Source of the DNA: a virus
DNA: 64,000 nt
Virus record (IMG/VR): IMGVR_UViG_3300033149_002817
Coordinates: 1 to 64,000 of that record
Strand: one strand, 5' to 3'
Shown: in pieces, positions 1 through 46,704 of the stretch
How positions within the stretch are numbered: position 1 is the stretch's first letter
How the letters are laid out: every line of letters starts with the position of its first letter
Notes under the pieces: generated by a model
Told to the model about the DNA's origin: nothing
Databases searched by the model: none
Seen by the model: only the letters and a program-made list of their open reading frames with translations
Made by a program: the position numbers and the translations under genes

Positions 1-543
1 ACGCATCTGCGCTGCGCGGAGATCGCGGGGCAGAAGACCATCCTGCTCAAGCCGACCACGGACAGCCGGGCGTTGCAGCTCGTGAGCACGCACGATGGGC
101 TCACGAAGCCGGCGACCGAGGTGGACCCCACCGAGGCGCTCTCTCCGACTGCGCTCGCGAAGTACGACGTCATCGGCATCGACGAGGGGCAGTTCCTCGA
201 CGGGATGTGGATCGACGTCATCGAAGACCTCGCCGACGGTGGTACCGAGGTCATCGTCGCCTGTCTCAATCAGGACTTCCGTGGTAACCCCTTCGGTATC
301 GCACCGCACTTGATGGCGATTGCGGACCGCATCGAAGCGCTTCGCGCGGTGTGCGTGGACTGCGGGAAGAAGGACAGCGCGACGCGCAGCTATCGCACGT
401 CCGAGGGTGATGATCAGGTAGAGGTCGGTGGCTCGGAGCGCTACATTGCGTTGTGCCGTCCGTGTTGGGTGGACAGGTGGGCAGAGCGACAGCGGGATGG
501 CGAGGCCGCCCCGCGCGCGACACAAGCTCAGGCGGCTGTGTAG
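1..543 (+). CDS. tk: Thymidine kinase (5'-truncated by window edge)
   Basis: Frame is open from base 1. Motifs KP..D.R...VSTHDG, VIGIDEGQF, VIVACLNQDFRGNPF, AVCVDCG, VEVGGSERYIALCRPCW are characteristic of TK1-type thymidine kinase. Confidence 0.95.
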   Translation, partial: THLRCAEIAGQKTILLKPTTDSRALQLVSTHDGLTKPATEVDPTEALSPTALAKYDVIGIDEGQFLDGMWIDVIEDLADGGTEVIVACLNQDFRGNPFGIAPHLMAIADRIEALRAVCVDCGKKDSATRSYRTSEGDDQVEVGGSERYIALCRPCWVDRWAERQRDGEAAPRATQAQAAV

Positions 544-574
544 AATAGGCGTACCGCTTGAGAAGGAGCACACG

Positions 575-3500
575 ATGGTCAACCTCGCGCAGTACCTCGC
601 CGGCAGTGTATCGCTCGAAGAGCTTGAGGAGTCGCTGCCCGTCAGCGGGGCCGGCGGCTTGATGCTGCCGAAGCCGATGACGACGCGGCACGAGAGGCTG
701 CAGCTCGCATGGCAGGATTTCAGCACGAAGCTGGAAGCCCTGTGGCTCGACGTGATGGAGACGTCCGAAGAGCTGTACATCGATGCCGCGCAGACCATCG
801 ACGAGCTGCGCAACGTCGGCTTTCAGAACCCGCGGCACGGGGTGCCAATCTTCAAGCGCTTGCAGCAGAAGGTCGCTGCGTACGCGATGAAGCCGAGCGA
901 AGAGCAGAATGCCATCCAGGTGATTGCCGCACGTCTCGGAGCGCTGAACGCTGAGCTTCTCTACATCTGCGACGAGCACGACCCGCAGATGCCGAAGCCT
1001 CCGGAGCTGCCCGCCCGCGACATGAAGACGTGGCAGAAGGATAGCGGCGTGGAGCGCTTCCCCGGCGAGCTGGGGATGTCTGATCCCGGCATCGAGGGGA
1101 TGGAACCGGAGCCCGACGACGAGGATTTGCCTCAGGATCAGCAGGTTATCTCGGCGGAGCCCGGCGAGGAGCCCGAGGGGGAGATGCCGCCCGAAGGCGA
1201 AGAGGTGCCGGGCGAGGAGCCCGACGAAGACGAGGTGCCCTACGATGCCGCCGAAGAGGAACCACAGGATGCGGAGGGAGAGCTTGCAGGAGAGGATGGA
1301 GAGGATCCGCTGGCTCCTGGGGACGAAGAGGAAGGCGCCCCGGTCGAGCCTGGTATGGAGGATCCTGACGGTGGTGAGGTGGCTCCTGAGGATGGAGAAG
1401 AGGAAGCCCCCGACGTCGAACCCGGCGAAGCACCCGACGAGGTTCCCGGAACAGAGCCCGAGCTTGCGCCTGAGCCCGGAACAGAGCCCGAGCCCGGAGT
1501 AGAGCCCGACGCCGAAGCTCCGCCCGGGGCCGAGCCCGGCGAAGAGGAGCCCGAGGCACCTCCCGAGAAGGCGGCACCGGATGGTGAGGAGCCCGAGGCG
1601 CCTCCTGAGAAGCTGAAGCCGGAGGATGGAGCGCCCGAGCCACCGTCGGGCATGGAGCCCGAGGGGATGGAGCCCGAGGGGATGCCGAAGGAGAAGCCCG
1701 AGGTACCGCCGAAGGAGAAGCCCGAGGTACCGCCGAAGGAGAAGGGCGACGAGAAGGGCGAGAAGCCCGACATAGCTCAGGTCGCGGACAAGGAACGGGG
1801 AGACGCGGACGACGCGAAGCAGGACTTCGCCGACGCGGCAGCGAAGACCGACGACGAGGAAGGGGAAGCAGAGGAGGTCGAGGGCGACCCGAAGGCTTCC
1901 CCGGAGAAGAAGGCGGACGAGAAGGACGACGTCGAGCGCGCGAAGGGTGAGGAGGTCGACGCTGCGGCGGAGGTCGAGGGTGAGGACGACGAAGCCGACT
2001 CGGCGGAGCGGTCGCTCGGGCAACAGCCGCGTGACTGGGACACCGACCGCCTGAAGAAAGCCTACGATCAGGTCAAGTCGGACCTCGGGGGCAAGGTGCC
2101 CGCGGACGAGATGCCGAAAACACCTGAGGAGCTGATCCAGCTCATCGCGCCCGACGACGGCGACGCCGGCATCATGCAGCAGGGAGCCGACGCGGACACG
2201 GGGAAGGTTGACCCGCAGCTCGCGCAGTACCTGCAGCGCGAGATCAAGAAGGGCACGCTTGGGAAGGAGCCCGACGAGGATGAGCAGCTCGGGGCTCCGC
2301 CGTCGAAGCCGAAGTCGAAGATGCCCCCGCCTGGGAAAGACATCAAGGCGGCGATGAAGATCAAGGCGAAGCGCAAGCCGGGTCGCCGGATGGAGGGGGA
2401 GCCGAAGCTCGGGGAGACGGTGAAGGCAGCTGACCCCGCGAAGGTGGATCAGGACGAGCTGGCGATGGGCACGAAGGAGGAGATGGAGCACACGACCGAC
2501 GTGAAGGTCGCGGAGCGCATCGCCTTGGAGCACCTCGCTGAAGACCCGAGCTACTACAGCAAGCTCAAGAAGGCCGGACTTGCGGAGTTCTACCGCTCTC
2601 CCGACTACTTCGGGCCGAAGGCGGAGCAGTACCTCGACGAAGTAGCGCTCGACGAGCGGGGCCTGCCCGGGGCCATGAAGGCAAAGAAGGTGCTCAAGCG
2701 TCTGCTCAAAGCCGGATGGGAGATCATTCGACAGACCGGATCGCACAAGATCCTGAAGAAGGCCACGAAGACCATCATCTTCGCGTTTCATTCAGGCGTC
2801 GAGATCGGCCGCCGGATGCTCGCGAAGCTGCAGAAGCAGACCGGCGTGAAGTTCATGGAGAACTACGCGGCGGTTGACGCTCTGCGCTACGCCATCGTCG
2901 AAGAGCAGGGTGACGTGGAGGCGTCTTTCCAGCTGGCAGCGGAGACGATCGCGGAAGCCGTGCGGCGCTACACTGACGCGAGTGATGTTCGTGGGGAGTT
3001 GGGCGTGGTTGCTCCCGGGCGTCCACCGTCCATCAACGTGTTCGCGGAGTGGCGGAGCAACGGCCGCCCGAGCGACAGCTTCGGCTTCACGCGTGTCATC
3101 CCGATCGAGGGGGCGGTGTACTTCGCGAACGCAGACGGCGTGGTCAGCGAGTCGTGGGATATCGACGAACACATCACGAACACGGAACTCGCGAACCGCG
3201 TATATGGCGCTATGAGCGAGGTTTACGACGTCTGCCCGACGCGCGTGACAGAGGATGAGAGGGTCGTACCGGCGCTCTACCGCGTCATGGAGCGAGAGCA
3301 GCGCGGAGAGAGCATCTCCGGCTACGCCTACGGTGGACTCCTTAACAGCCTTCGTTCGTCGCTGAGCATCGCAGAGGGTGTGGCTACCGCGCCTCAGCGC
3401 ATCCACGTGACGATGGCAGGCCCGCGCCGCTACTACTTCGAGTGGACGGTCCCGGCCCCCAAGAAGATCCCCGCTGTTGTGGGGACACCGGACGGCATGC

Positions 3501-4243
3501 TTGCTGAGATGCAGGACGTGCTTGGCGCTGGAAAGCTGGCGCTCAACGAGGACGCGACGGTCACGCTCGGCGGCGCGAGGGTGGGCCTCCTGAAGCATCG
3601 CCCGATGACGCCGGAGACCGTGCGGCAGGTCGCGATGTTCAAGACGCCGACCCGGGCTCAGTTCGCTGCGGGGAAGCTCGGAAGCGACTGGACTCCGGTT
3701 CACGTCTACGTTGACGACGGGTCGGAGGGCTGGGTCGTCGGCGACAAGCGGAAGGACGCGCTGTCGAAGATCGGAGCCCGGCGTATGGGTGTTGAGGAGG
3801 GGGTCATCGGGCTCTCTGCAATAGGTGGTGCCGCGTCTACGGTGTGGTGCTCACCGCCGATCAGCATCTCTCCGTCAGAGGGCTCCGTGCTGATCGGCGA
3901 CTCCGTGCTCGACAGGGACTGCTCCGATAGGGCGTTTGCCGATATCATCTCGACGCTCTCCGAGCAGCAGGACGACACGGCACACGGCTACCTGTTCGAG
4001 GACGGCCCCACCGTCCAGGTGGATCGCAAGACGCGCCTACGTGTGCAGGAGACGGGTGTGGGCGATGTGCTGGTGTCGCCGCTCGACGAGGACGAGGACG
4101 AGAGGATCCGGGAGGCGAAGGCGGCGAAGCAGAAGCTCGACCCGTACGACGTCATTCGTGCAATCGCGAACATGGAGTTCATCCCGCGTGGGCCGTTTGC
4201 GGTCCTGAGGGTGAAGCGTCACGGGACGGGACAAGGGAAGTAG
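575..4243 (+). CDS. Large modular putative internal head polyprotein: acidic E/P/G-rich region, DUF5661-like domain, HicA-like RNase domain
   Basis: AAGGAG RBS precedes ATG575. Low-complexity E/D/P tract at ~1090-2000. ELAMGTKEEMEHTTD..AERIALEHLAEDPSYYSKL resembles DUF5661. MKAKKVLKRLLKAGWEIIRQTGSHKILKK...FAFHSGVEIGRRMLAKLQKQTG matches the HicA pattern. Confidence 0.8.
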   Translation: MVNLAQYLAGSVSLEELEESLPVSGAGGLMLPKPMTTRHERLQLAWQDFSTKLEALWLDVMETSEELYIDAAQTIDELRNVGFQNPRHGVPIFKRLQQKVAAYAMKPSEEQNAIQVIAARLGALNAELLYICDEHDPQMPKPPELPARDMKTWQKDSGVERFPGELGMSDPGIEGMEPEPDDEDLPQDQQVISAEPGEEPEGEMPPEGEEVPGEEPDEDEVPYDAAEEEPQDAEGELAGEDGEDPLAPGDEEEGAPVEPGMEDPDGGEVAPEDGEEEAPDVEPGEAPDEVPGTEPELAPEPGTEPEPGVEPDAEAPPGAEPGEEEPEAPPEKAAPDGEEPEAPPEKLKPEDGAPEPPSGMEPEGMEPEGMPKEKPEVPPKEKPEVPPKEKGDEKGEKPDIAQVADKERGDADDAKQDFADAAAKTDDEEGEAEEVEGDPKASPEKKADEKDDVERAKGEEVDAAAEVEGEDDEADSAERSLGQQPRDWDTDRLKKAYDQVKSDLGGKVPADEMPKTPEELIQLIAPDDGDAGIMQQGADADTGKVDPQLAQYLQREIKKGTLGKEPDEDEQLGAPPSKPKSKMPPPGKDIKAAMKIKAKRKPGRRMEGEPKLGETVKAADPAKVDQDELAMGTKEEMEHTTDVKVAERIALEHLAEDPSYYSKLKKAGLAEFYRSPDYFGPKAEQYLDEVALDERGLPGAMKAKKVLKRLLKAGWEIIRQTGSHKILKKATKTIIFAFHSGVEIGRRMLAKLQKQTGVKFMENYAAVDALRYAIVEEQGDVEASFQLAAETIAEAVRRYTDASDVRGELGVVAPGRPPSINVFAEWRSNGRPSDSFGFTRVIPIEGAVYFANADGVVSESWDIDEHITNTELANRVYGAMSEVYDVCPTRVTEDERVVPALYRVMEREQRGESISGYAYGGLLNSLRSSLSIAEGVATAPQRIHVTMAGPRRYYFEWTVPAPKKIPAVVGTPDGMLAEMQDVLGAGKLALNEDATVTLGGARVGLLKHRPMTPETVRQVAMFKTPTRAQFAAGKLGSDWTPVHVYVDDGSEGWVVGDKRKDALSKIGARRMGVEEGVIGLSAIGGAASTVWCSPPISISPSEGSVLIGDSVLDRDCSDRAFADIISTLSEQQDDTAHGYLFEDGPTVQVDRKTRLRVQETGVGDVLVSPLDEDEDERIREAKAAKQKLDPYDVIRAIANMEFIPRGPFAVLRVKRHGTGQGK
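1652..1744 (+). repeat. In-frame short tandem repeats (15-bp x2 MEPEG; 24-bp x2.5 PKEKPEVP)
   Basis: atggagcccgagggg occurs twice, then gccgaaggagaagcccgaggtacc twice plus a partial copy. Confidence 0.85.
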
Positions 4244-7654: not shown

Positions 7655-10141
7655 ATGCGACCGGAGCATCTCGACGTCATTCTTGAGCGTGTCGGTGCGG
7701 CGATGCAGGGCAACGCTGTAGCCGAAGCGCAGCAGAGCGTCGATGAGGTAGACAGAGGCTTCGAGTCGTTTGAGGAAGGCACGCGGGCGGAGCAGTTTCG
7801 CTGCAAAGCGCTGTTTTCTGGGGGTGGGTCTGGCTCTGGTAAGGGTTTTGTTCTGGACAACACCGTCCGCGGCCTCGGGCTTCGTATCCTCAACTCCGAT
7901 GACGTCCTTGAGGCGCTTGCGGCAAGCCCGGTCACGCGTGAGCGCTTGCAGAAGAAGCGCGACGCGAAGGGTGCAGAGGGCGACATCACCGGGAAAGGCT
8001 ACGGTCGTCGTGGCGCCGTGATCGACCTCAAGACCGAGCTGATGGGCAAGTTCGTCCAGAAGGAGCTGCGCCCCTACTCGAAGCGTCGGTACAAGAACAA
8101 AGCGCATATGACGATGGACCGCCGCAACGGTCTCGTCTTCGACGTGACCGGTGCCAACCTCGGGACCATCCAGAAGTTCTATAAGGAGCTTACTGAGCGG
8201 GGTTACGACTGCGGGATGATCTTCGTCAGTGTGAAGATTCCGACTGCGCAGACGCGTGACCTCAAGCGTAAGCGTTCGCTCGGCCCGGAAGAGGTCGAGA
8301 AAGTTCACATCAAGGCTAACGCCAACGTCTCGAAGCTGGCTCAGCTGTTCGGTGCGGAGAATTTTCGCATCGTGGTGAACGAGAATGTCAGGGGTACGAA
8401 GCGGCCGACGGCGAAGAAGGACCGCTCCCTTCCCGAGGCAATCCGTAGCGGCGCGACGATGATGCGTGCTGTCAAAGGGCGGAAAGCGCAGCAGCAGGCT
8501 ACGGTCAGCTCCGACCAGTGGACCATCAACCAGCAGCTCATACTGCAGAAGTTCAAGGACGCTCGTAGTTGGGCGACGAAGTGGCTCAAGAGGCCCATCC
8601 GGAACCCCGTCGGCAAGGCGTACCTTGCGAGCCTGAAGGAGGCGGTTGCCGCGGACGCGGGGCTCGTCGAGAAGGCGGAGATGTACGTCGTCTACCGCAA
8701 GGACGGCACCGGCTTCATCTACGAGCAGATGTTCTACGACCAGCTGACTGCTCGGGCGTTCGCACGTCGCATCAAGGGCTCCGTCATCATGGACCCGGCG
8801 AAGGTGCCCGACAGGATCGGCAACCTCTCGCAGCTCGGCGGGAGCGTGGTCGAGGGGGCGGGGGTGCTCAACGAGTGGGGGTATCGGCAGCAGCGTCGCA
8901 CGAAGACCCTCAGCCGTCCGGCCGACGAGATCGCGAAGGCTCTCTCGTTTGAGGCCGCTGTCGTGTTGTTCGGGAGCACGCAGTTCAAGTCTCCCAAGTA
9001 CAAGCTCGCGCAGGAAAGCTTTCGTCTACGCATCTCGAAGGCTGAGTGGGAGAAGGGTCGTAAGGAGCTGACGGGTCACGGCATAGCCAACAAGGCGGGG
9101 AACGTCACCTACAAGCTCGCAACTCCGGTGCGCACCGAGTTGGAGAAGATCGTCGGGGCGCGGACGGACTTCCGGCTTGGGATGGCGCTGACGAAGCACT
9201 ACAACCGCTCGAAGGCGTTCATGGGCGACCCGTGGGATAATGCCGAGAAGCGTCGGTTCGACCTGAGGGACGGTCACTGGTACAGCACCGGCGACTACAA
9301 GCCCCTCCCGGAGGCGGCCGACATCGACGAGCGCGGCTACAAGGCCAACCCGAAGGCATACGCGCAGGCGATGGCGAAGGCCGGAGCGAAGCCTTCCCGT
9401 GTTTGGTTGACCGTCGCAAACCTCGTGCAGTCGGCGGCGAAGAAGATGGGGAACGCTGTTCGCAACATGTCAGACGAGAAGGAGCGTGCCGCGTCGCTCG
9501 GACCCCTGAACACGATTCTGGACCTGACCGATGTTTCTATGGCTACTCAGGCATCGCGCTCGCATCGTGCTGAGACGGTCAAGCAGGTAGCTGCAGCGCG
9601 GGACGCAGCGCAGCGTAGTGGTTCACCGCTCTACTCCGCGCTCAACGACCTCTATCGCAAGATCCGCGCGACGACGTACAACGAGTCGGCCGAAGACCTC
9701 GACGAGTTCTTCTGGCGGAAGCGCGACAAGGGCAAGTTCGCGGCGAAGGGGCAGGGTCAGGAGCCCGCGCCACGCAAGAAGGTACGCTCGAACATCGCCA
9801 GCGACGACTACGCGAAGGCGCTTGCTCAGGCGAAGTCCGACCCGCGCTACAAGGACGAGCTGAAGCACAAGCTCGCGAAGGCGGAGAGCGCGAACGACCG
9901 CACCGGCGTCGAGCTGACGGAGCCGGCGGGACTCGTCAAGCCCGGTCAGGAAGGCGAGTGGAAGCGCGCGAAGGCGGCAGCTTCCCAGCAGTACCCGGGC
10001 ATGGAGGCGAAGGACAAGGACCGCTTCTACGCCGTCACGAACACGATCTTCGGATCGATGACCGGGCGGAGGAAAGAGGAGAGCATGACAGAGCGCACTG
10101 CCAACCTCCTCACCGAGCGGATGACCGGCATCCGGGGGTAG
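7655..10141 (+). CDS. Modular putative internal head polyprotein with N-terminal zeta-toxin-like P-loop kinase
   Basis: KALFSGGGSGSGKGFV (Walker A), ILNSDD, GLVFDVTG and MIFVSVKIPTAQTRDLKRKRSL give the zeta/AAA_33-type kinase pattern. Several basic modules follow, separated by LxE/VxE motifs. Confidence 0.8.
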   Translation: MRPEHLDVILERVGAAMQGNAVAEAQQSVDEVDRGFESFEEGTRAEQFRCKALFSGGGSGSGKGFVLDNTVRGLGLRILNSDDVLEALAASPVTRERLQKKRDAKGAEGDITGKGYGRRGAVIDLKTELMGKFVQKELRPYSKRRYKNKAHMTMDRRNGLVFDVTGANLGTIQKFYKELTERGYDCGMIFVSVKIPTAQTRDLKRKRSLGPEEVEKVHIKANANVSKLAQLFGAENFRIVVNENVRGTKRPTAKKDRSLPEAIRSGATMMRAVKGRKAQQQATVSSDQWTINQQLILQKFKDARSWATKWLKRPIRNPVGKAYLASLKEAVAADAGLVEKAEMYVVYRKDGTGFIYEQMFYDQLTARAFARRIKGSVIMDPAKVPDRIGNLSQLGGSVVEGAGVLNEWGYRQQRRTKTLSRPADEIAKALSFEAAVVLFGSTQFKSPKYKLAQESFRLRISKAEWEKGRKELTGHGIANKAGNVTYKLATPVRTELEKIVGARTDFRLGMALTKHYNRSKAFMGDPWDNAEKRRFDLRDGHWYSTGDYKPLPEAADIDERGYKANPKAYAQAMAKAGAKPSRVWLTVANLVQSAAKKMGNAVRNMSDEKERAASLGPLNTILDLTDVSMATQASRSHRAETVKQVAAARDAAQRSGSPLYSALNDLYRKIRATTYNESAEDLDEFFWRKRDKGKFAAKGQGQEPAPRKKVRSNIASDDYAKALAQAKSDPRYKDELKHKLAKAESANDRTGVELTEPAGLVKPGQEGEWKRAKAAASQQYPGMEAKDKDRFYAVTNTIFGSMTGRRKEESMTERTANLLTERMTGIRG

Positions 10142-10145: not shown

Positions 10146-13100
10146 ATGCCCGAGCTGACCGAACGACAGGAAGTTCTCGACGACGCCGCGATCAAGCGGA
10201 TGCGGAAGGACTACCTGATGCTGATGCGGAACATCGACCGCGTCACGTCTCCGCGGGCGCACGCGGTCCTGAAGAAAGGCGCGAAGACCTTCGCTCAGCA
10301 CCTCGTAGAACTCATCGTCGGTGACTGGTTCGACACGGCCGACGCGCCTATCAAGACGATCCTCCTGAAGCACAACGTCCCGGAGCGGGAAGCGAAGGCG
10401 GTGCAGCAGCTTGCTCAGAAAGCGCTGTACATGCTGGAACACGAGCTGACGATGATCCCGGATTGGCAGGATTGGGGGGAGGCGTCGCGCAAGGGGGCGA
10501 AAGCGTCAGACTCAGTCCGATGGCGGAAGCGGGTCGATAAGCACGCTCGTCAGGTCTGGAAGGACTTGGACTACGTCTCCAAGTACGTCAAGCGCGTCAG
10601 CGGGTCCACGCCGGTCGTCGGGAAGGCAGAGACGAGCTTCGACGTCGCGGGCATCCCGGTTCGCGTCACGGGGACGCTGAAGTACCCGGATGCGTTCCGT
10701 ACGGGGATGAAGGACGCGGTTCAGCGGATCAAGAAGGTACTCCCGTGGGCGATGCGGTACCGCCTCCCGGTACAGATCATCGACATGGACATGAGGGCAG
10801 ACGGCACGTACAACCGTGCAACGAAGCTCATCCGTATGTCGCACTGGTTGCACGAACCGCGCCGCGTGTCTCAGGTGTACGTTCACGAGATGGGGCATCA
10901 CCTCTGGCAGCAGCTCGGGCAGGACGCGAAGGACTACTACCGCGCGGCCGGGAACGCGAACGCGAAGAAGCTGAGCGTCCGCAAGCTGCTCGATGAGTGG
11001 CCCGAGGGCGCTCTCGGTCTGCTCGGGTACGCGAGGCAGCTTGAGAACTCTGATCCCATCCTCTCCGTGCAGCTGCAGTCGATCGAGATGGGTTACGCGT
11101 CGCGCTCTGCGTCGGACAAGACAAGCCTATTGACGCTTCTCGATCGTGGTGTAGAGCACATTACGGTCGACGGGCACCCGGTGACGTACTACGCCGCAAA
11201 GAACTCGGAAGAGAACTTCTGCGAGGTACTCGGGGCGCTCATCTCGTTCGGTCCGCGCACCGTTCACCCGCTCGTCAAGGCGCTCATGAAGCACGTACTC
11301 GGCTCCCGCTTGAAGCTCTCGGAGGCGACGATGGACACAACCGCGCCCACGAAGGCTCCGTGGCATTCCTGCACGGATTGCGACTACGGTATTCCCAAGT
11401 ACGTGGGCCGCTACCCCCAACATTGCCCGAACTGCGGATGCAAGCTCGGGGGCCAGTCGGGCTACCCGAGCATGAAGCGGCGCCTCCCGACGCGCACCGC
11501 GGACCCGGGGCCGGGCATTCCCCTTGAGGAGCGCGCAGCCTTCGAGGCGTGCATGCACGACGTAGCGCGTGGGGTGAGCTTCCCCGGCGTCACTTACACG
11601 CTCACGGAGGGCGGCGTTGCGGCGTTCCGCTACGCGCCCGACCACCTCGCGATCACGCCGACGGTCATCCGCGTCTCGCTCGACGAGGTCAGCATCCCGG
11701 CAGTCGAGGCGGAGGTCATCAAGCTCGCCGAGACGGTCGACACGCTGATGGTTGATAGCGCCATCGATGAGGGCACGCTGTCAGAGAGAAGGCAGGCCGT
11801 ACTGTCGACGAAGCACTTCGACAAGATGCGCACCGAGTGGAAGCGTATGTTGAAGCCACTCTTCACGAAGGGGCGCGGTACGCTTGAGACCGAGGCGGCG
11901 GACTCCGTCTACGCGGGAAAGTTCGAGGAGTTCGTGCGGGCGTCGTTCGAGTTTCTGGCGCACGAAGTTCCGGTTCTCCCTTCGTTGATATGGTGGTACG
12001 AAAAAGCCGACAACATCACGGGGCCGGCGAAGGCGATAGCGGATAAGTTCGCGGGCGCTTACCTGTGGTCCGAGACGTTCTACAAGCGCAAGTCTGTTCG
12101 TCCCGCGGAGGACTACAAGAAGTTCTACGGAGGCAAGGCGGAGAAGTTCCTGGAGATGTTCGTGAAGCTCCGCAGGGCTGTCGAACACTCGGGGTTTACG
12201 CTCGACAGCTGTAGGCTTATGGGAAAGGCTTCGACCCGCAACATCGATCTCGACATCAAGTACAACAACGTCTTTCGTGAGCACCTTTGGAAACTGTGGC
12301 AGGAACGCGACCCGAGCAGCTTCGATAAGAACGTGAAGAACTTCTTCGCCGGCCCGCACGACGAATCTGCACGTGAGCCGATGGCGGAGTACGCGAAGAC
12401 GCTACCTCGCGAGCTGACCGACTTGAAGTACCAGGACGTTGAGACGAGGCACGTAGACCTTGAGCACGCGGGGAAAGCGGTTCTCGCGAAGCTCGACAAG
12501 GTTCTCAAGTTCTTGAAGGGTGGCGTTGCGACTGCGAGCTATCCCGAGTACATGATGAAGCAGATCGCTACGCAGAACCTCGGTCGTGAGAAAGTGCGTG
12601 GTGAGAAGCTTGCGGTAACGGCGGACGTCGTGCGCGGGAACGACAACGTCGCCGGCTTCCGTGTCGAGAACGACATAGGGCTTCCGCGTCACGCTTGGGA
12701 GAGCTTTGCGAAGGTAGTAGCTCTCGTAGCACGTGGGTTGAAGCGTAAGGGTCTCGGCTTCCTCATCAAGCGCGTGGTCGTTCACGTCAAACCAAAAACC
12801 ATGCGCACGTTCACCGTCAAGGATACTGGAGAGAAGAGCCTGTATGGTGGCTCCTACAACCTGTCTCCCGGGTACGACATGTTGGATCTCAAGTATGGAA
12901 TGAGAACAGATCCGAGTTCAAAGCAGAAGCTCAGTAAGAGCACGCCGACGGCGAAGGGCAAGGGCGTCGTCGTCATGAACTACGACACCGCCAGCATACC
13001 GTCTGAGCAGGACGTGGCGCGCATCTTCACACACGAGATCGGGCATCACTACTACTTCGCTTTCCTGCCGCCGAAGGCTCGCGCCGCCTACCGGCACTTC

Positions 13101-16100
13101 TTTGGTTTGGCAACCAGCTTCCCGTCAGCCTACGCGAAGAGCCAGGCGATCGAGGACTTCGCCGAAATCTTCACGGCATGGGTGCTGAAGGGCACTGGGC
13201 TGATGAAGACCGGCGAGTACAAGCCGCTCGACGACGACATGATGCAACGCTTCCGCGGTGCGATTCGTCTCGATCCGGCCGCGAAGGGCGTCAAGCTCGC
13301 CGAAACGGTCGGCACGCTGATGGTGGACGACGTCACCGATGAGGACATGCTGCTCGACCCGCGCACGAAGCTGCCGGTCCCGTCGGCGGAGCCGCTTGCA
13401 GAGAGGGCGGCGCTGTCGACCACGTTCTTCAACAAGGTGCGGACCCTGTGGAAGCAGGAGCTGAAGCCGCTGCTCATGAAGGGGCACGGCACGACGCACA
13501 CCGCGGACGAAGATGACGCGGCGGCATCCGGCTTGAAGTCGTTCTCGGCGACGGCGTTTGCGTTTCTCACGCATGAGGCTCCGATCCTGCCTACGCTTTC
13601 ATGGTGGTACGACGACTACACAAGCAAGGCTGCGCTGACGGCCATCCATGACAAGTTCGCCGGGGAGAACCTGTGGTACACCAAGATGCGTGGCGATGCG
13701 GACAAGTTCTACGCGGATAAGGCGAAGCGCTTCACCGAGCTATTCCAGCAGTTCCGCGAGGCGCTCAACAGCGGGTTGACGCAGCTGCAGTATGCGAAGG
13801 GCTCGACGCGTCCGCAGGTACTCGCTTACTTCGCGAAGCAGGCGATGAGCGACAACGAGCAGCGCAAGAAGGCATGGGCGTTTTGGAAGCGGGCGCATCC
13901 GAAGCGCTTCGCGCGAGAGACTGCCGTCTTGGACGGACCGATGGATGAGACGCAGGATCATCTGTTCATCGACTACATGATCGAGATGTTCAGGGAGCAG
14001 ACACGCTCTGCACTCGACGACTCCGATCGCCGGCACACAGAGCTGAAGACCGCGGGCGACGTCATCCTCAGCTCGATCGACGTGCTCTTCAAGTTCCTGA
14101 AGGACGGCATCGCTACGTCCGGCTATCACACGGGCGCGCAGGCGGAGATCGCGCAGAAGTTCCTGGGCCGGGACGTGAAGAAGGGCGAGAAGCTCGCGGT
14201 TACGAGCGACGTCGTGCGTGGGAACGACAACGTCGCCGGCTTCCGTGTCGAGAACGACGCCGGTTTGGAGAAGTCCACTTGGGAGGGCTTCTCCAAGGTG
14301 TTGGCTCTCATCGCTCGCGGGCTGAAGCGCAGAGGGCTGGGCTTCTTGGTGAAGCGCGCGACCGTGACCGTTCGCCCGCGCAAGGGGAAGACGGTCAACG
14401 TGATGGCGACCGGCGATGACTCGGCTCAGGGGGGCTCCTACAAGTTTGGCGGGCTTGACGCTCCTTCGGCAACGGCTCCTGCGAAGGCGCGGCCGTACCG
14501 TCCGAGCAGCCCGACGACTACGGGGAAGGGCGCCATCTCGCTGTTCGTTGACGAGGTGTACCGGATGCCCGCGCGCGACATAGCGGTCGTCTTCACGCAT
14601 GAGCTTGGGCACCACTACTACTTCGCCTTCCTGCCGCCGAAGTCGCGTGAGGCGTACAAGGTCTTCTTCCAGCGTGCGACGAGCTTCCCGACCGCGTACG
14701 CGAAGAACAACGCAGGCGAGGACTTCGCCGAAATCTTCACAGCGCTGGTGCTGAAGGGCACCGGATTGATGAAGACGGGTCACTACAAGCCGCTCGACAA
14801 CGACATGATGCAGCGCTTTAAGGCTGCCATCGACATGGACCCGAAGGCGAAGAGCGTCAAGCTGGGCGAGTCCTTCGAGGAAAGTCTCTGGGAGCGCGTG
14901 AAGGATTCGCTTGGGATGCCGCGCTCCAAGATGCCGCAGATTCGCTCGGATCTCGTGCCGGAGTTCCTGGAGTTCCTGGGCGGGAACGACGTCAAGGTCA
15001 CGCGCAGGACGATGCCGGCAAACCGTCTCAAGCCGACGCAGAACGAGCTGAACAAGTCGAAGCTCGACTACATGGTGACGAAGGGGGTGAAGCAGCTTCT
15101 CAAGCCGATGATCGTGTCGTCTGACCACTACGTCCTTGACGGACACCATCGGCTTGGCGCTCTGCGGGTGAAGAATCCGAAGGCAGAGGTGCCGGTCATC
15201 GTGGTCGACCTGCACATCATGCGGCTGCTTCAGGTCGCGCACAAGTTCGCGAAGGTCGGGTACAAGAAGCTTAGCGAGGCGATCGGCGGACCGAACCCGG
15301 TTCCGACGGTGAACCCGAAGGCGGACTCGGCGGACGTCCCGGTTGCTCCGACGGACAGCACCGGCGTCGGCTCGTCGTTCAACGCAGCGCTTGGCGTGAA
15401 CGAAGCGGAAGGCATCTTGCAGAGGCTCAAGAGCAAGACGAAGTTCGTGCTCAAGGTGCTCCGGAACGCGAAGATCGGCTTCGCGAGTGTGACGCCGACG
15501 GCTCGCGCCGACAACCCGGCCGACAAACCGCTGCAGCTCAACTTCTTCAGCCCGCAGATGAAGCCGAACCCGATCCCGCACATCTACGTCGCGAACGCGG
15601 CCGACGCTTTCCGTCAGCTGCTCGGGCTGGGCATCCGGGAGCCGCAGCTCGCCGTCCACATGGTGACGGAAGCGGCGACGATGGCGTTCCTTCGTGACGC
15701 GTGGCTGCTGGAGAGCAAGCGTACGAAGTACAAGTCGGCCATCGCGGTCGTCGTGAAGAACCGCGTGAAGGGGCCGGCGGAAGTGCTCATCGGCAAGGCG
15801 TCGGACACCGGAGACGACCGCACCGGTACGTGGTGTCTCCCTGGCGGGGGCATCTCCCCGGACGACGATGACGAGCACGACGCCGCCGCGCGCGAGGCGT
15901 GGGAAGAGATGGGTGTCACGGCAACGCCCACCGGCAAGAGCGTCGAGATGCCGGGGCGGCCGGGCATCATCTTCTGCTACCTCGATTACGTCGAAGGCGA
16001 CCCGAAACCGAACGCGGAGTTCACGGCGGCGAAATGGCTGCCGGTCGCGGACGCGTGGAAGACGAAGGGGCTCTACAGCACGACGGAGCCCCTCATTCAG

Positions 16101-16640
16101 CGCCTCAGCGGCGAGATGAAGGTGACGGAAGCTTTCCCGACACGTAAGAGCAAGCCGGCGAACACGGGCGGCCGGTCGCTCGTCGGCGGGGAGCCGGCTG
16201 CGACGGAAAAGAAGCCCGGCAACAGCTTCGAGACGGACGACAAGAAGGACAACGCCTTCGACCCCGCGGACCGCGACAAGACGGGGACCGTATCGCAGGA
16301 CGACGCGCGTGCGGAGAAGAAGCTCGACATGCCGGATCAGGCGAGCGACGAGCTTGACCCGGCGGAGAGCGACGAGATGCAACAGGACGGACAGCAGCCC
16401 GGCGAGGAAGGACCGCCGCAGCCGGGGCAGCCGGCGACTCCGACCGGGCCGAAGAGCATCATGTTGCGCTTCCCTGACATGTCGATGGCGTCTGACGCTG
16501 ACCAGTGGTTCAAGTCAATGAACGTCGATACGCAGCTTGACGGTATCGAACTCACGGCCACAGCTAAGGATGCGACCGATCTGGAGGTCATTTCTCGTAC
16601 TGCGACAGCGTACGGGTTGGAGCTTTCGGACGCGGCGTAG
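10146..16640 (+). CDS. 2164-aa polyvalent protein: three HEXXH zincin metallopeptidase modules, Zn ribbon, ParB/Srx-like domain, Nudix hydrolase
   Basis: HEMGHH...YAAKNSEENFCE; CTDC...CPNC; HEIGHH...YAKSQAIEDFAE; HELGHH...YAKNNAGEDFAE; LKPTQNE...PMIVSSDHYVLDGHHR; WCLPGGG...AAAREAWEEMG. Confidence 0.88.
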   Translation: MPELTERQEVLDDAAIKRMRKDYLMLMRNIDRVTSPRAHAVLKKGAKTFAQHLVELIVGDWFDTADAPIKTILLKHNVPEREAKAVQQLAQKALYMLEHELTMIPDWQDWGEASRKGAKASDSVRWRKRVDKHARQVWKDLDYVSKYVKRVSGSTPVVGKAETSFDVAGIPVRVTGTLKYPDAFRTGMKDAVQRIKKVLPWAMRYRLPVQIIDMDMRADGTYNRATKLIRMSHWLHEPRRVSQVYVHEMGHHLWQQLGQDAKDYYRAAGNANAKKLSVRKLLDEWPEGALGLLGYARQLENSDPILSVQLQSIEMGYASRSASDKTSLLTLLDRGVEHITVDGHPVTYYAAKNSEENFCEVLGALISFGPRTVHPLVKALMKHVLGSRLKLSEATMDTTAPTKAPWHSCTDCDYGIPKYVGRYPQHCPNCGCKLGGQSGYPSMKRRLPTRTADPGPGIPLEERAAFEACMHDVARGVSFPGVTYTLTEGGVAAFRYAPDHLAITPTVIRVSLDEVSIPAVEAEVIKLAETVDTLMVDSAIDEGTLSERRQAVLSTKHFDKMRTEWKRMLKPLFTKGRGTLETEAADSVYAGKFEEFVRASFEFLAHEVPVLPSLIWWYEKADNITGPAKAIADKFAGAYLWSETFYKRKSVRPAEDYKKFYGGKAEKFLEMFVKLRRAVEHSGFTLDSCRLMGKASTRNIDLDIKYNNVFREHLWKLWQERDPSSFDKNVKNFFAGPHDESAREPMAEYAKTLPRELTDLKYQDVETRHVDLEHAGKAVLAKLDKVLKFLKGGVATASYPEYMMKQIATQNLGREKVRGEKLAVTADVVRGNDNVAGFRVENDIGLPRHAWESFAKVVALVARGLKRKGLGFLIKRVVVHVKPKTMRTFTVKDTGEKSLYGGSYNLSPGYDMLDLKYGMRTDPSSKQKLSKSTPTAKGKGVVVMNYDTASIPSEQDVARIFTHEIGHHYYFAFLPPKARAAYRHFFGLATSFPSAYAKSQAIEDFAEIFTAWVLKGTGLMKTGEYKPLDDDMMQRFRGAIRLDPAAKGVKLAETVGTLMVDDVTDEDMLLDPRTKLPVPSAEPLAERAALSTTFFNKVRTLWKQELKPLLMKGHGTTHTADEDDAAASGLKSFSATAFAFLTHEAPILPTLSWWYDDYTSKAALTAIHDKFAGENLWYTKMRGDADKFYADKAKRFTELFQQFREALNSGLTQLQYAKGSTRPQVLAYFAKQAMSDNEQRKKAWAFWKRAHPKRFARETAVLDGPMDETQDHLFIDYMIEMFREQTRSALDDSDRRHTELKTAGDVILSSIDVLFKFLKDGIATSGYHTGAQAEIAQKFLGRDVKKGEKLAVTSDVVRGNDNVAGFRVENDAGLEKSTWEGFSKVLALIARGLKRRGLGFLVKRATVTVRPRKGKTVNVMATGDDSAQGGSYKFGGLDAPSATAPAKARPYRPSSPTTTGKGAISLFVDEVYRMPARDIAVVFTHELGHHYYFAFLPPKSREAYKVFFQRATSFPTAYAKNNAGEDFAEIFTALVLKGTGLMKTGHYKPLDNDMMQRFKAAIDMDPKAKSVKLGESFEESLWERVKDSLGMPRSKMPQIRSDLVPEFLEFLGGNDVKVTRRTMPANRLKPTQNELNKSKLDYMVTKGVKQLLKPMIVSSDHYVLDGHHRLGALRVKNPKAEVPVIVVDLHIMRLLQVAHKFAKVGYKKLSEAIGGPNPVPTVNPKADSADVPVAPTDSTGVGSSFNAALGVNEAEGILQRLKSKTKFVLKVLRNAKIGFASVTPTARADNPADKPLQLNFFSPQMKPNPIPHIYVANAADAFRQLLGLGIREPQLAVHMVTEAATMAFLRDAWLLESKRTKYKSAIAVVVKNRVKGPAEVLIGKASDTGDDRTGTWCLPGGGISPDDDDEHDAAAREAWEEMGVTATPTGKSVEMPGRPGIIFCYLDYVEGDPKPNAEFTAAKWLPVADAWKTKGLYSTTEPLIQRLSGEMKVTEAFPTRKSKPANTGGRSLVGGEPAATEKKPGNSFETDDKKDNAFDPADRDKTGTVSQDDARAEKKLDMPDQASDELDPAESDEMQQDGQQPGEEGPPQPGQPATPTGPKSIMLRFPDMSMASDADQWFKSMNVDTQLDGIELTATAKDATDLEVISRTATAYGLELSDAA
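11721..14870 (+). repeat. Diverged tandem duplication (~1.57 kb x2) of a zincin module within the 2164-aa gene
   Basis: Units start with KLAETV(D/G)TLMVD at 11721 and 13293. A ~50-bp block (DVVRGNDNVAGFRVEND) is near-identical at ~12624 and ~14208. Both end KPLD.DMMQRF...D.P.AK.VKL.E. Confidence 0.9.
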
Positions 16641-17551: not shown

Positions 17552-18883
17552 GTGACGATCTACTACGTCAACAAGTCAGGTGATGATGCAAACGGCGGGA
17601 CGAACGCGACGACAGACGCGAAGCTGACGATCAAGTCGGGGGTGCCTCTTTGCAGCGATGGAGATACGCTGAAGGTCGGCAGCGGCGTGTACGAAGAGGA
17701 TACTATCCCCTGGACGGGCTATAGTGGTGTCACTGTTGAGGGAGATCGGAACGTCATCATAGACGGTGGTGGGGCCAACATTTTCTCGCAGTCCGCCATC
17801 GAGATGGCCGACTACTTCACTATCAAGAATGTACGCTTCCGCGACTGTAGTTATGCGGTCTATTACAGCGGTGAATTCACTACCCGCATCAGTTTTGAGC
17901 GATGTTGGTTCGAGGCTTGCCGCTACGCGACCGGTGGGTCTCAGTCGAACAACAACCAGCGTCGGTATGTCAAGGCACACGAGTGTGTACTCATCGGTTT
18001 GGTTCATCTTTGCACCTACGGCAGCACAGGTTCTCCTATCTTCTACATGACCAACAACCTCTTCTATGACTTCTCCGGCGAGGTATATTATTCTGTTACC
18101 GGCGATAGCTATATTGGACTGGCACTGCACAAGGGTAACATCTACCACACGATAGGCGGCGCTCAGGGTCTGTGGGATCAGGCGGACGCGAATGCCAATG
18201 GTATGGGTTCAGCCCTCAGCATCGGGGATAATTACTACTACAACTTTGCGGGCAACTTCTTCAAGTGGAAGAATATCGTCTACGCTACGCTCGCTGACTT
18301 CAAGGCTGCGTTCCCTGGCTACGAGGCGGGTAGCTACGAGGGCGTGGACCCGCTCCTGGCAGACATACCGAATGGCATCTACTACCCGCGTGCGGACTCT
18401 CCTGTCGTCGGGCCTGGCACCTATGTCGAGAAGGTCGGCCCGTGGGCTCGCGTTCTCAATTTCAGCGATGGCCAGCAGTTCTTCGGTACGTGGGATATCG
18501 TCTCTTCTCCAGCCGCCGACGCAGGAACAGCATGGGCTCGCACAGCTGGGAGTGTGTCCAAGGTTGGGACGACATTCTTAGGAAACGGGACGATCGTCTC
18601 GCCTGTTATACCGTTGGCTGGCGGCAGCGTAGTACGCCTGACGCGTGTCATGCTGCGATCGAAGGAGTCCTACCCGCTCGACGTCATCGACTACGACAAC
18701 TCCGACAGCGCGCCTAACCGGAAGAACTACAGGTACCGTATCTCAGACACACCGTTCAACCAGGACGGTACTGGAGGTGGTCCTACGTGGTCATCGTACG
18801 AGATCGAGGAAGAGCTGGTAGGGCAGACAGGCGCATACGTCCAGCTTGAGTTGACGTTCCGCATTGACGGCGTTGCAGCATAG
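17552..18883 (+). CDS. Putative right-handed beta-helix (pectin lyase-like) virion protein / depolymerase-like
   Basis: N-terminal YYVNKSGDDANGGT...KLTI...GDTLKVGSGVYEE...IIDGGG motif. Asn/Tyr-rich ladders; lower GC than flanks. Confidence 0.65.
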   Translation: MTIYYVNKSGDDANGGTNATTDAKLTIKSGVPLCSDGDTLKVGSGVYEEDTIPWTGYSGVTVEGDRNVIIDGGGANIFSQSAIEMADYFTIKNVRFRDCSYAVYYSGEFTTRISFERCWFEACRYATGGSQSNNNQRRYVKAHECVLIGLVHLCTYGSTGSPIFYMTNNLFYDFSGEVYYSVTGDSYIGLALHKGNIYHTIGGAQGLWDQADANANGMGSALSIGDNYYYNFAGNFFKWKNIVYATLADFKAAFPGYEAGSYEGVDPLLADIPNGIYYPRADSPVVGPGTYVEKVGPWARVLNFSDGQQFFGTWDIVSSPAADAGTAWARTAGSVSKVGTTFLGNGTIVSPVIPLAGGSVVRLTRVMLRSKESYPLDVIDYDNSDSAPNRKNYRYRISDTPFNQDGTGGGPTWSSYEIEEELVGQTGAYVQLELTFRIDGVAA

Positions 18884-18892
18884 GTTGCCATC

Positions 18893-20134
18893 ATGCCGAT
18901 GCTAACTGATCCTACGCCCGTAAGTTCGTCATACGCTGTCAAGGGGACTGACGGTCCGACGCTGGCGTTGATGCACAGCACGCCGGTCAGCACCACTCCC
19001 ACCTACTTCTACAGTCCCGCCTATTCAAACCGGCTGCTTGTTCTCGTTGTGCATTCTGTACAGCCGGAGACGGAGGAATGCGCCTTCAGTGTTAAATGCG
19101 ACGGTGACTGGATGTCTTTCGCATGCCAGGCTCGCTACGTTATATGGGGTTACGTAGTAGTCACGCAGATTCACTATAAGGCGAACCCTAAGGAGGGCGG
19201 AAACGCAATCCTGATTAGCTCTGCTCCTGATATGAGGGCTCAACGCACCATCGCGATGGCTGCCTCCTTTGAGGGGGTTTCGGCACTAAACGACACGAGA
19301 TTCGGCCACGTCTACAATACTACCGGCATAAATCCAAGAGCTGACGTCACCTTCAGGGGTAACTGCCTGAACGTGCAAGCTGCTACGCGGTTCAATGCAG
19401 CCGGTTACTGGCGAGAGATACACGACCAGCTGGAGATCATGGAGGTGGCCTCTACCGCTACCCGTGGTGTCCTGGGATCGAAAATCTACGGTGCGGGAAT
19501 CAATCAGGATGCTGGTTGGTATGCTAATACAAAAACGCACCTGACAGCGGCCACCGCGACGTTCGAGCCAGCAGATTTTGACGACGGCCTGTACGGAGTC
19601 GTCATCGAGACATCGGCTTTTTCCGTTCTTGGTGGTGTATCGGTTGAGACATCGGCTCCGCCCGTCGTCGGCGGAATTGCGATCGAGACGTCTCTTCCTC
19701 CCGCGCTCGTCACTGGGCGTTGGGGCTACTCAGGCACGGTCACTGGGTCGCTTGTGGTCCCGACGACTTCGACGCGTTCGGTGTCCGGGCGGTGGGGCTA
19801 TTACGGACGCGCGTCCGGCCTGCTCGCTCCGTACGTCGTCACGACCTACGACTACTATGTCGGGTGCTCATACTGCCGCACCGGCATCTTGCTGGAGACG
19901 GACATTGCAGCGCTCCGTGCGCAGGGCTTCCGTGTCGAGCTGATCGACACGGCCGCGGGACACACGTGGGTGACGATTTCCGGTCCGCTGTCCGCGACCA
20001 TCGCCGCGCGCGAGTCGATTGTGTGGCATTCTCGCCCGACGTGGTTCTTCGGCCCAGTGCCCAACGGCACGGTGTTGACGGAATCGTTCCTGCGTCAGTG
20101 GGCGCCTCGTGGTCGGGTGATGGGCATATGGTGA
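18893..20134 (+). CDS. Hypothetical (likely structural/fibre-associated) protein
   Basis: Long ORF; short internal repeats (GV.IETS, GRWGY); AT-richer 5' half. Confidence 0.55.
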   Translation: MPMLTDPTPVSSSYAVKGTDGPTLALMHSTPVSTTPTYFYSPAYSNRLLVLVVHSVQPETEECAFSVKCDGDWMSFACQARYVIWGYVVVTQIHYKANPKEGGNAILISSAPDMRAQRTIAMAASFEGVSALNDTRFGHVYNTTGINPRADVTFRGNCLNVQAATRFNAAGYWREIHDQLEIMEVASTATRGVLGSKIYGAGINQDAGWYANTKTHLTAATATFEPADFDDGLYGVVIETSAFSVLGGVSVETSAPPVVGGIAIETSLPPALVTGRWGYSGTVTGSLVVPTTSTRSVSGRWGYYGRASGLLAPYVVTTYDYYVGCSYCRTGILLETDIAALRAQGFRVELIDTAAGHTWVTISGPLSATIAARESIVWHSRPTWFFGPVPNGTVLTESFLRQWAPRGRVMGIW

Positions 20135-20136
20135 GC

Positions 20137-20166
20137 TTGAGGTAGTATAGCCTGACCGACTATACT
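20137..20166 (+). promoter_or_regulatory. Candidate promoter overlapping an inverted repeat
   Basis: TTGAGG-N18-TATACT; AGTATAG-N9-CTATACT inverted repeat at 20144-20166. Confidence 0.45.
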
Positions 20167-20250
20167 GGTGCGTTGAGCATCAGCACAAGCCGTTGCAGCA
20201 ATAGACCTTCGCAAAATGTCCGTTGCTGTAAGGTCGAAAACGGGGGCGTC

Positions 20251-20427
20251 ATGGAAGTTCTGGAGAACGGGGACTACCGACTTGCCGACGGGCGGGTCAT
20301 CAACAGGGCAGACGTCGCCGGCCTTCACCGGACGGTTCCGGTGGACGAGAGCATGAAGAAGCAGACAGCGGACCGGCCGCCGCTGAAGGAAGGGCACAGC
20401 AGCGGTCCCATGACCCTGCTCGGTTAG
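20251..20427 (+). CDS. Small hypothetical protein
   Basis: GGGGG RBS-like sequence before ATG20251; typical codon bias. Confidence 0.55.
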   Translation: MEVLENGDYRLADGRVINRADVAGLHRTVPVDESMKKQTADRPPLKEGHSSGPMTLLG

Positions 20428-20436
20428 GAGATACCG

Positions 20437-21699
20437 ATGGAAGACCTTCGCGAGGCGGTTGTGGGTGCGCTGGCGCACAAGACGGAGTGCTACGAGAGCG
20501 TGCAGGTGGAGCGGTCGCTTCTCGACGAGTCCGACATCGAAGCGCTTGCTGCGGTGAAGCGTTCGCCGATGTTCGAGGGGTACAAGGGGGACATGGACTA
20601 CCACGTGCTGCGCGGTCTGCTCAGCAGCACGAACCACGATCCCATCTCGGTGAACGAGGTGCGTGCGCGTCGCTACGCTCGTCTCATCCTGGAAGGGCGG
20701 ATCACCGAGGACTTCGAGATCGACACCGACATCCTCGCGGAAGACGGCGACCCGTGCCTCCACGACGGGATGAAGGCGATGGGCAGCTTCCCCAACGTCG
20801 ATCCCTCCATGCCGAAGGGTGACGCGGACAGCGGCGTGAGCCAGAACCAGAACGGTCACGGCGACACCGCGGAGAAGCCCGGCAAGGGGTACATGGAGGA
20901 GCACCTCGACCGCGTATTCGCCATCGAGGCGTTGCTGCTCGGTGAAGAGGTCGGCACGACCCCGAAGGAGAAGTTCGGCAACTCGATGCCTTCCGGCGTC
21001 GACACTTCGGCCGACACCTCCGACGTGACCGAGGACGACAAGAAGCTCCCGAACGAGACGCACGTCGCCGCGGGTTCTCCCGACTACGACAAGATCGAGA
21101 AGAACGATGGCGGCGACCTCGACGTCGGCCCCGGTCCGATCTTCGATGAGTCGAGGCTCGCCGAGAAGGACTGGAAGCCGAAGGCGGAAGACCCGGGCGA
21201 GGGCAGTCAGGGACAGGAAGGCCGCATCCCGAAGGACAACCCCGCGCTCGACAACGTCCGTGAGGCGGAGTGGAAGCCGCAGGCGCAGGATCCGGGTGAG
21301 GAGTCTCCCGCGATGTCGCTGCCGACCGAGGATGGGTTCATCGGCGATGACGGTGTCAAGCAGCACGAAGCTCTGCAGCCCTACGAGCGGGACGCCATTC
21401 GCTACCTGGAGGCATGCGGCTACACCCCGGGCACAACTGAGTGGCGCAAAGCCTTCGCCGGCTACCTGCACGAGGTCGGCAGCTTCACCGAGAAGGCCGA
21501 CCCGGGCGGCTCCGTCTTCGTGCCCAAGGGTGGCACCGGCATCAAGACGGACAAGGACGCGGCGAAGCGGTTCGGCAAGGGTGCGACCGTGTGTGGCGCA
21601 TGCAAGGGCTCCGGCAAGGGCTCCGGCGGCAAGGGCTGTCAGCAGTGCTGGGGTGCTGGTGCGCTCGATGCACGCGGTGACAGCCCCTACTCGGATTAG
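20437..21699 (+). CDS. Acidic putative prohead core/internal protein with C-terminal CxxCxGxG zinc finger
   Basis: AGGAG RBS; D/E-rich; many LxE sites; repeat (K/A)(D/E)WKP.A.DPGE.S; CGACKGSG...CQQCWGAG (DnaJ-type Zn finger motif). Confidence 0.65.
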   Translation: MEDLREAVVGALAHKTECYESVQVERSLLDESDIEALAAVKRSPMFEGYKGDMDYHVLRGLLSSTNHDPISVNEVRARRYARLILEGRITEDFEIDTDILAEDGDPCLHDGMKAMGSFPNVDPSMPKGDADSGVSQNQNGHGDTAEKPGKGYMEEHLDRVFAIEALLLGEEVGTTPKEKFGNSMPSGVDTSADTSDVTEDDKKLPNETHVAAGSPDYDKIEKNDGGDLDVGPGPIFDESRLAEKDWKPKAEDPGEGSQGQEGRIPKDNPALDNVREAEWKPQAQDPGEESPAMSLPTEDGFIGDDGVKQHEALQPYERDAIRYLEACGYTPGTTEWRKAFAGYLHEVGSFTEKADPGGSVFVPKGGTGIKTDKDAAKRFGKGATVCGACKGSGKGSGGKGCQQCWGAGALDARGDSPYSD

Positions 21700-21707
21700 G
21701 GGTACTC

Positions 21708-22112: not shown

Positions 22113-22145
22113 GAAAAGCAGAAACTCTGTGAGGGAGTGAGATAG

Positions 22146-22913: not shown

Positions 22914-22925
22914 TCGAGGGATCGT

Positions 22926-46079: not shown

Positions 46080-46087
46080 GGGGCGAC

Positions 46088-46564: not shown

Positions 46565-46566
46565 GC

Positions 46567-46704
46567 ATGAGTGGTTGGTGGAATTGGTATGACAGGACAC
46601 CGGGGAAGCAGCTGAGCGACATGGACGTAGGGCTGAAAGTACTCTACGTCTCCGTCGGTCTGATGGTTCTTCTCGTGTTGCTCGTGACTATCGACGTCTG
46701 TTGA
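46567..46704 (+). CDS. 45-aa single-pass membrane protein (not in ORF track)
   Basis: MSGWWNWYDRTPGKQLSDMDVGLKVLYVSVGLMVLLVLLVTIDVC fills the intergenic gap exactly. Confidence 0.5.
   Translation: MSGWWNWYDRTPGKQLSDMDVGLKVLYVSVGLMVLLVLLVTIDVC

Follow-up and report, generated by a model that had tools for sequence, protein, structure and literature searches.

A segment with conserved ends and a variable centre in the protease-scaffold fusion and a kinase-like protein of an uncultured T4-type phage

Two proteins with a segment in common

The DNA analysed here (hereafter, the window) comprises the initial 64 kb of one viral record of 95.6 kb, IMG/VR IMGVR_UViG_3300033149_002817 (G000; G+C ~62%), for which CheckV estimates a completeness of 44%. 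Two proteins predicted in the window carry a related segment of about 120 amino acids (aa), referred to below as the module. The first, pA, is the product of an 828-aa open reading frame (ORF) on the + strand (7655-10141), in which a lead, a kinase domain, an unassigned middle, the module and a basic tail follow one another. The second, pB, is an 875-aa protease-scaffold fusion, also on the + strand (28671-31298; 874 aa if translation starts at the ATG at 28674). The copy in pA occupies positions 9323-9685 (residues 557-677, IDE/RGYK...TYNE, the slash marking a putative cut) and the copy in pB positions 29673-30050 (residues 335-460, LAE/RDYK...MYNE).

A first-pass annotation of the window had aligned these two intervals, and its coordinates proved exact. 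A BLASTP comparison of pA with pB returns one significant segment (pA 550-678, pB 322-461; 57.8 bits, E=1e-12), with 34% identity over 140 columns. The Smith-Waterman score of 152, set against 32.5±5.9 in 2000 shuffles (z=20), places the similarity well beyond composition, and the 80-aa flanks of the two copies are dissimilar on both sides (z 0.75 and -0.18). The copies are also of similar length, as had been claimed, with 118 aa between the glutamate (E) sites in pA and 123 aa in pB. An assembly artefact was considered and rejected, given that the copies are just 34% identical and that each protein is known from six contigs.

The similarity is confined to two end motifs, each next to a hydrophobic-x-Glu (h-x-E) tripeptide. 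The N motif, of 21-24 aa (K-x-x-P-K-A-Y-A-x-A-M-x-K-A...), directly follows an (I/L)-x-E site and yields z values of 5.8-11.9 between copies against shuffles, and the C motif, of 36-39 aa (...Y-x-x-L-x-D-x-[YH]-R-x-x-R-A-x(1-2)-Y-N-E), yields 9.6-14.5. The 46-60 aa that separate them show no significant similarity in any pair of copies (z -1.4 to 0.7). In pA, a PLPEAA lead and the putative N-side cleavage site D-I-D-E (E559; 9302-9331, + strand, delimited from alignments) precede the N motif RGYKANPKAYAQAMAKAGAKPSRV (residues 560-583; 9332-9403, + strand; z 5.8-8.9 against shuffles). A non-conserved centre of 58 aa follows (residues 584-641; 9404-9577, + strand; z 0.7 and -1.4 against the other centres), and then a C motif of 36 aa, predicted to form a helical hairpin, which ends in the putative cleavage site T-Y-N-E (E677; 9578-9685, + strand; z 9.6-14.5). 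The pB copy has the same layout, all of it on the + strand: a PLPTAA lead with the putative N-side cleavage site Q-L-A-E (E337; 29634-29681), likewise delimited from alignments and predicted to be disordered; the N motif RDYKGDPKAYAKAMGKAQKRAGIK (residues 338-361; 29682-29753; z 8.9-11.9); a non-conserved 60-aa centre (residues 362-421; 29754-29933); and a 39-aa C motif ending in M-Y-N-E (E460; 29934-30050). Directly behind it lies a second basic segment of 59 aa (residues 461-519, ARMG...ARYNE; 30051-30227, + strand).

Two of the original claims are qualified by this dissection. The similarity had been described as starting and stopping at the xxE motifs. On the C side it does end at Y-N-E or one residue later, but on the N side it begins upstream, at the conserved PLPxAA found 8-14 residues before the h-x-E. 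Similarly, the description of both intervals as the same ~120-aa module holds as a statement of significant paralogy and is overstated in that the end motifs alone are shared.

The end motifs of the pA and pB copies are identical at 13/28 and 20/35 aligned positions. At the identical residues, matching codons are found in 11/18 cases (9.8 expected) and 12/20 cases (10.9 expected). Synonymous sites are therefore saturated, which points to an old duplication whose ends have been held by selection at the protein level; recent gene conversion between the two copies is ruled out on the same grounds.

The orthologous copy, its centre and the predicted fold

Searches by tblastn and hidden Markov model (HMM) in six frames put the number of copies in the 95.6-kb record at exactly two. 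The sole other copy found lies in P0003, a 786-aa orthologue of pB encoded on two JGI metagenome contigs (L001 and L002) and identical to pB at 65% of positions by BLASTP, or 73% over aligned columns. When the whole module, the N motif and the C motif were each searched by tblastn and HMM against six frames of the record and of both contigs, known copies only were returned. Among 1.84 billion representative proteins, an exhaustive search with a profile recovered pA only; it missed pB and P0003, though both score more than 160 bits with the module HMM locally, so the library is incomplete for this lineage and its silence on further copies does not amount to proof. A word-indexed search with the module region of pB retrieved pB itself only, pattern scans combined with tblastn confirmed no relative in IMG/VR, JGI metagenomes or GTDB genomes, and a strict DNA pattern for the C motif had 0 matches in IMG/VR. 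The first-pass annotation had proposed looking for homologues flanked by xxE in different host proteins; the third copy does carry h-x-E at both borders, but it resides in an orthologue of pB and adds no new host.

The comparison of pB with its orthologue on L001 separates the parts of the module clearly. On either side of the module, DNA identity is 84-88%, with a synonymous divergence (dS) of 0.35-0.62 and a ratio of nonsynonymous to synonymous divergence (dN/dS) of 0.17-0.32. The DNA of the N motif is 82% identical and that of the C motif 56%, and the alignment of the centre scores at the level of shuffled sequence (z -0.1). Point substitution at the rate of the flanks is insufficient to produce a random centre between flanks this similar, and the simplest account is that the centre was swapped for a divergent variant rather than drifted. 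Such a replacement between sister phages implies, in turn, a wider and unsampled pool of variants. The orthologue on L001 also lacks pB residues 461-519, the second basic segment, a 59-aa stretch located between two Y-N-E sites. The same 9-nt string, TACAACGAG, ends both the module and this segment, and a deletion between direct repeats could explain an orthologue without it.

In all three copies, the piece between the E sites is small and basic (107-123 aa, isoelectric point 9.7-10.2, net charge +8 to +10), and the scaffold around it is acidic. AlphaFold2 (AF2) models the pA copy, from 2 sequences, with a predicted local distance difference test score (pLDDT) of 57, and the pB copy, from 3 sequences, with a mean of 68. 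In the pB model the N-side site is disordered (pLDDT <50) and the helix of the N motif is weakly predicted, while residues 51-140 of the copy form an up-down four-helix bundle (pLDDT 74-92), with two predicted helices contributed by the centre and two by the helical hairpin of the C motif (pLDDT 78-92). The module has zero matches in Pfam and PHROGs and no usable match in the ESM Atlas; the best hit among PDB sequences has E=0.11, and Foldseek with the module model reaches E=0.65 in PDB and 0.12 in BFVD. Fold comparison with VIA peaks at Z 9.2, on generic up-down four-helix bundles and short of what counts as meaningful for helical bundles. A bromodomain and the DGR Avd protein (Z 8) were rejected as fold relatives, both being non-specific four-helix bundles.

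Host proteins and gene neighbourhood

In pB, residues 63-219 form a Peptidase_S77 domain (Pfam PF03420, E=8.2e-17, 61.8 bits against a cut-off of 27), the conserved scaffold part runs from ~530 to 872, and His124, Ser177, Ser178, Ser183 and Asp203 are invariant across 24 members of the family. A collection of 5.8 billion proteins contains 61 homologues of pB, all of them S77 fusions (500-876 aa), and IMG/VR adds 80 further loci, nearly all with fusions of ~430-720 aa; in cultured phages the match is limited to the protease domain, at ~29% identity. All homologues align with pB residues 2-~306 and ~530-872, leaving the middle of pB unaligned, and the module is absent from the 59 other fusions of the protein search and from the 80 IMG/VR relatives. 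The module is hence an insertion into a variable linker, which in other family members measures about 0-157 aa and is not basic.

The post-protease region was also compared with the ±10 kb around the locus in the 80 IMG/VR relatives, and no scaffold segment common to another protein was found there. G000 served as the positive control for this comparison (E=2e-10). A match in G004 (E=0.0012, 15 bits), restricted to the variable centre, was taken as noise. On the sequences compared, the sharing of a segment between the scaffold and another protein is specific to this lineage.

A further observation on pB concerns a possible nested in-frame scaffold start just 3' of the protease domain, at Met234 (29355-29372), where CAGGAGGAGCGG stands upstream of an ATG (MGMLADLRERF) in G000 and is conserved in L001. 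A Shine-Dalgarno-like string precedes a Met located between -5 and +60 aa of the protease end in 37/63 distinct family members (L001, L003-L082), compared with 15.6% of other internal Mets; Glu-rich coding alone can yield such strings, and a nested start inside pB is only hinted at.

In pA, an acidic N-terminal lead (residues 1-41) carrying four h-x-E motifs is followed by a Zeta_toxin/AAA_33-like P-loop kinase domain at residues ~50-245 (Pfam Zeta_toxin, E=5.8e-6, 26.3 bits against a cut-off of 22.3), the only domain recognised in the protein, and the module is placed between the body of pA and its basic tail. In the P-loop of the kinase domain, GGGSGSGKG (7805-7840, residues ~51-62), the Lys is followed by Gly in place of the usual Ser/Thr; the kinase may be atypical or inactive. 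A word-indexed search of the 5.8-billion-protein collection found no homologue of pA of 455-1449 aa besides pA itself. The string DDYAKALAQAKSDPRYK in the tail (9809-9880, residues ~719-742) resembles a degenerate N motif; the resemblance is not significant (HMM domain score -0.8).

An S77 protease-scaffold fusion and a Gp23-type capsid gene are both present in this uncultured T4-type phage. The pB gene lies directly 5' of the gene for the major capsid protein of the Gp23 family (31344-32735, + strand; Pfam PF07068, E=1.3e-57, 196.4 bits against a cut-off of 24.4), nearly all genes in the window run on the + strand, and tail-fibre-like genes separate pA from pB. The surroundings of pA are structural genes in one direction, and pA itself is flanked by a 1271-aa protein with DUF5661 and HicA domains and by a 2164-aa protein with NUDIX and zincin-like motifs. 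These two giant neighbours (428-4243 and 10146-16640) contain [LIV]-x-E at chance level (26 against 26.9 expected and 25 against 23.3), so that the motif count alone lends no support to reading them as polyproteins of the prohead protease. Distant relatives with ~63% G+C have ORFs of 1700-2100 aa at 13-19 kb upstream of the protease-scaffold gene and on the same strand (G006, 43063-49353; G008, 133134-138200; G010, 18702-23747).

Processing at the borders and known systems

The reference for cleavage in this lineage is the inferred capsid junction of G000, NSIDE/TTRAVNVG (E55, nt 31500-31508). Across ~30 relatives, the capsid propeptide closes with the conserved pattern [LIMF]-x-E, with [TED]-T-[RK] directly behind it, and ~17 residues separate this junction from the conserved N-terminal block of the mature protein. 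The N-side sites of the module (IDE/R, LAE/R and LAE/K) fit this motif, and Y-N-E/S or Y-N-E/A fits it more loosely, F-N-E and M-N-E variants being present at the capsid junction of relatives. The [LIV]-x-E motif is enriched in pB (32 against 14.6 expected), pA (17 against 9.2) and the capsid protein (9 against 4.8). Furthermore, h-x-E is kept at both borders in 3/3 copies despite local insertions and deletions, which adds weight to a reading of the borders as cleavage sites. With pB an S77 protease-scaffold fusion and the conserved borders matching the capsid junction, we infer that pA is connected with the prohead, as the first-pass annotation had anticipated from the segment it shares with the protease.

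The interpretation that we favour, and to which we assign a probability of roughly 45%, is that the module is a prohead-core cassette cut out by the protease, whose ends would act as processing or docking signals and whose centre would be exchangeable. In this model, the cassette consists of two conserved end motifs, each beside a T4-type prohead-protease site (hydrophobic-x-Glu), around a variable centre of ~50-60 aa. Both pA and pB would be built into the prohead core, and after assembly the S77 protease would cut at both flanking sites, freeing a basic helical polypeptide of 12-14 kDa comparable to a T4 internal protein and parting the kinase portion of pA from its tail. Selection at the protein level would maintain the end motifs, probably for processing and/or docking in the core, and the centre could be exchanged between phages. 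A related proposal, which we hold to be unlikely, takes the linker of the protease-scaffold fusion for a plug-in slot, in which end motifs and protease sites would carry an exchangeable small basic protein that can also be placed in pA-like core proteins; the cargo would then be made in scaffold copy number and, once freed in the head, would be delivered together with the DNA.

Several observations weigh against the cassette. Everything searched has produced three copies, so the conservation patterns rest on few sequences, and the AF2 models are shallow. With one h-x-E for about every 20-36 residues of pA and pB, the coincidence of such motifs with the borders is modest evidence by itself, and the Y at P3 of Y-N-E departs from the classical L/I-x-E, with backing only from the F/M-N-E capsid junctions of relatives. 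A segment embedded in the scaffold, such as that of pB with its conserved ends, requires no targeting signal. The first-pass annotation went further and took E-bounded segments to be mobile units. Part of this stands, since between sister phages the centre is replaced and a 59-aa segment bounded by Y-N-E is present or absent; a strictly E-bounded unit does not, because homology starts before the first E, the left edge of the replaced stretch falls 3' of the N motif and no more than the three copies are seen. Comparison of the post-protease region with the whole record of eight distant relatives (30.8-185 kb) likewise revealed no shared segment.

The shared sequence could alternatively act as a handle that brings like together with like, the pA copy binding the scaffold copy, or the same partner, and so recruiting pA into the core, after which it would be excised and lost. 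This would make it a long, internal and scaffold-derived version of the T4 capsid-targeting sequence (CTS). An element flanked by cleavage-type sites at either side, and found in the scaffold as well as in a putative cargo protein, is what such a handle would look like; relatives without the module likewise lack any sharing between scaffold and other proteins, and precedents exist in the T4 CTS, the C-terminal propeptide of the SPN3US protease and the gp47 propeptide (PMC7411985). The folded centre, however, differs between the copies, making for a poor fit to a specific homotypic interface, and is replaced in the scaffold of the sister phage, and the acidic N-terminal lead of pA, with its four h-x-E, could itself be a targeting leader. 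On balance, this recruitment is improbable.

Two further explanations dispense with processing or with function. If the module were an ordinary shared domain left uncut, for instance one binding nucleic acid or a partner, the Glu motifs would be incidental, and the basic charge, helical content and predicted bundle fold of the element, the density of h-x-E, at which a coincidence is possible, and the position of Y-N-E at a predicted helix end, rather than in a loop, would all be accommodated. It would not be expected, though, that the similarity halts exactly at Y-N-E in all copies, with unrelated flanks, that both sites persist amid varying neighbouring residues and lengths, or that the segment present or absent between orthologues sits between two Y-N-E sites, and its host is a scaffold, a protein that the protease degrades in T4-type phages (PMC9958956); we regard this explanation as decidedly unlikely. 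Least probable of all appears a dispensable spacer, which would be linker sequence duplicated long ago, functionless in itself and tolerated by a scaffold linker that accepts insertions. The linker length in the family (~0 to 157 aa), the unconstrained sequence of the centre and the fact that most relatives manage without the module are compatible with it, but the end motifs remain about half identical in the face of saturated synonymous sites and are kept in the sister phage, a pattern that argues for purifying selection.

Under the cassette model, the shared segment yields specific residues for processing and loading in this lineage (E559, E677, E337 and E460), and the centre, fully replaced between sister phages, looks like an exchangeable payload. 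If the payload reading holds, internal proteins embedded in the scaffold would be a new place to seek injected counter-defence factors, and, if the plug-in slot were true, phages would have an undescribed way to encode and swap internal, possibly anti-defence, proteins. To our knowledge, the entry of large multidomain phage proteins into the capsid and their disassembly there have mostly been inferred, the short N-terminal tag of T4 being the only well-tested rule.

In lambda (C/Nu3) and the herpesviruses (UL26/UL26.5), nested in-frame genes share scaffold sequence; through it a second protein enters the procapsid core, and the protease later cuts the shared sequence. There, the shared part is identical through gene overlap, whereas the pA and pB copies are old paralogues with 34% identity in genes 19 kb apart.

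The polyvalent proteins of phages offer a second comparison: they are large and multidomain, their genes neighbour those of the virion, and packaging and processing are predicted for them, with autoproteolysis by embedded metallopeptidases as the proposed route (PMC5512222). The HicA, DUF5661, NUDIX and zincin-like domains in the neighbours of pA recall them. The work on polyvalent proteins, however, describes neither segments shared with the scaffold nor prohead-protease sites as joints (PMC5512222), and pA has one recognised domain.

A closer parallel in length is found in the giant phages SPN3US, phiKZ and 201phi2-1, where the prohead protease removes long propeptides at A-x-E (PMC7411985, PMC10052503) and where a targeting role has been proposed for these propeptides and for the protease's own C-terminal one (PMC7411985, PMC10052503). 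The propeptides taken off abundant head and ejection proteins in SPN3US measure 111-130 aa (PMC7411985), against 107-123 aa for the module. With the exception of that of the protease, they are N-terminal, and they are documented by mass spectrometry; the module is internal, with putative sites on both sides, and is common to scaffold and putative cargo.

The nearest match in layout is T4 itself, in which gp21 cuts the core proteins and the internal proteins remain in the head (PMC9958956). The internal proteins of T4 (IPI, IPII, IPIII and Alt) and the module have in common an S77-type protease, a Gp23-type capsid and cleavage, here putative, after hydrophobic-x-Glu. In T-even phages these proteins are highly diverse except for a conserved capsid-targeting sequence (PMC3012670), and the likeness, judged by layout, is to small, basic, core-resident proteins in which a conserved signal stands beside a highly diverse body (PMC3012670, PMC9958956). 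The same division is found here, with z values of 5.8-14.5 for the ends and -1.4 to 0.7 for the centres. On the other hand, the T4 signal is an N-terminal leader of ~10 aa on separate small genes, removed by one cut after L/I-x-E, while the module is an internal segment closed at either end by a conserved motif of 21-39 aa, and the proteins that hold it are the scaffold itself and a large protein resembling a kinase. For cargo polyproteins joined by protease sites, experimental precedents exist in T4 and SPN3US (PMC9958956, PMC7411985, PMC10052503); what appears to be new here is a two-ended internal unit common to the scaffold and a putative cargo protein, with a centre that seems to have been replaced between sister phages.

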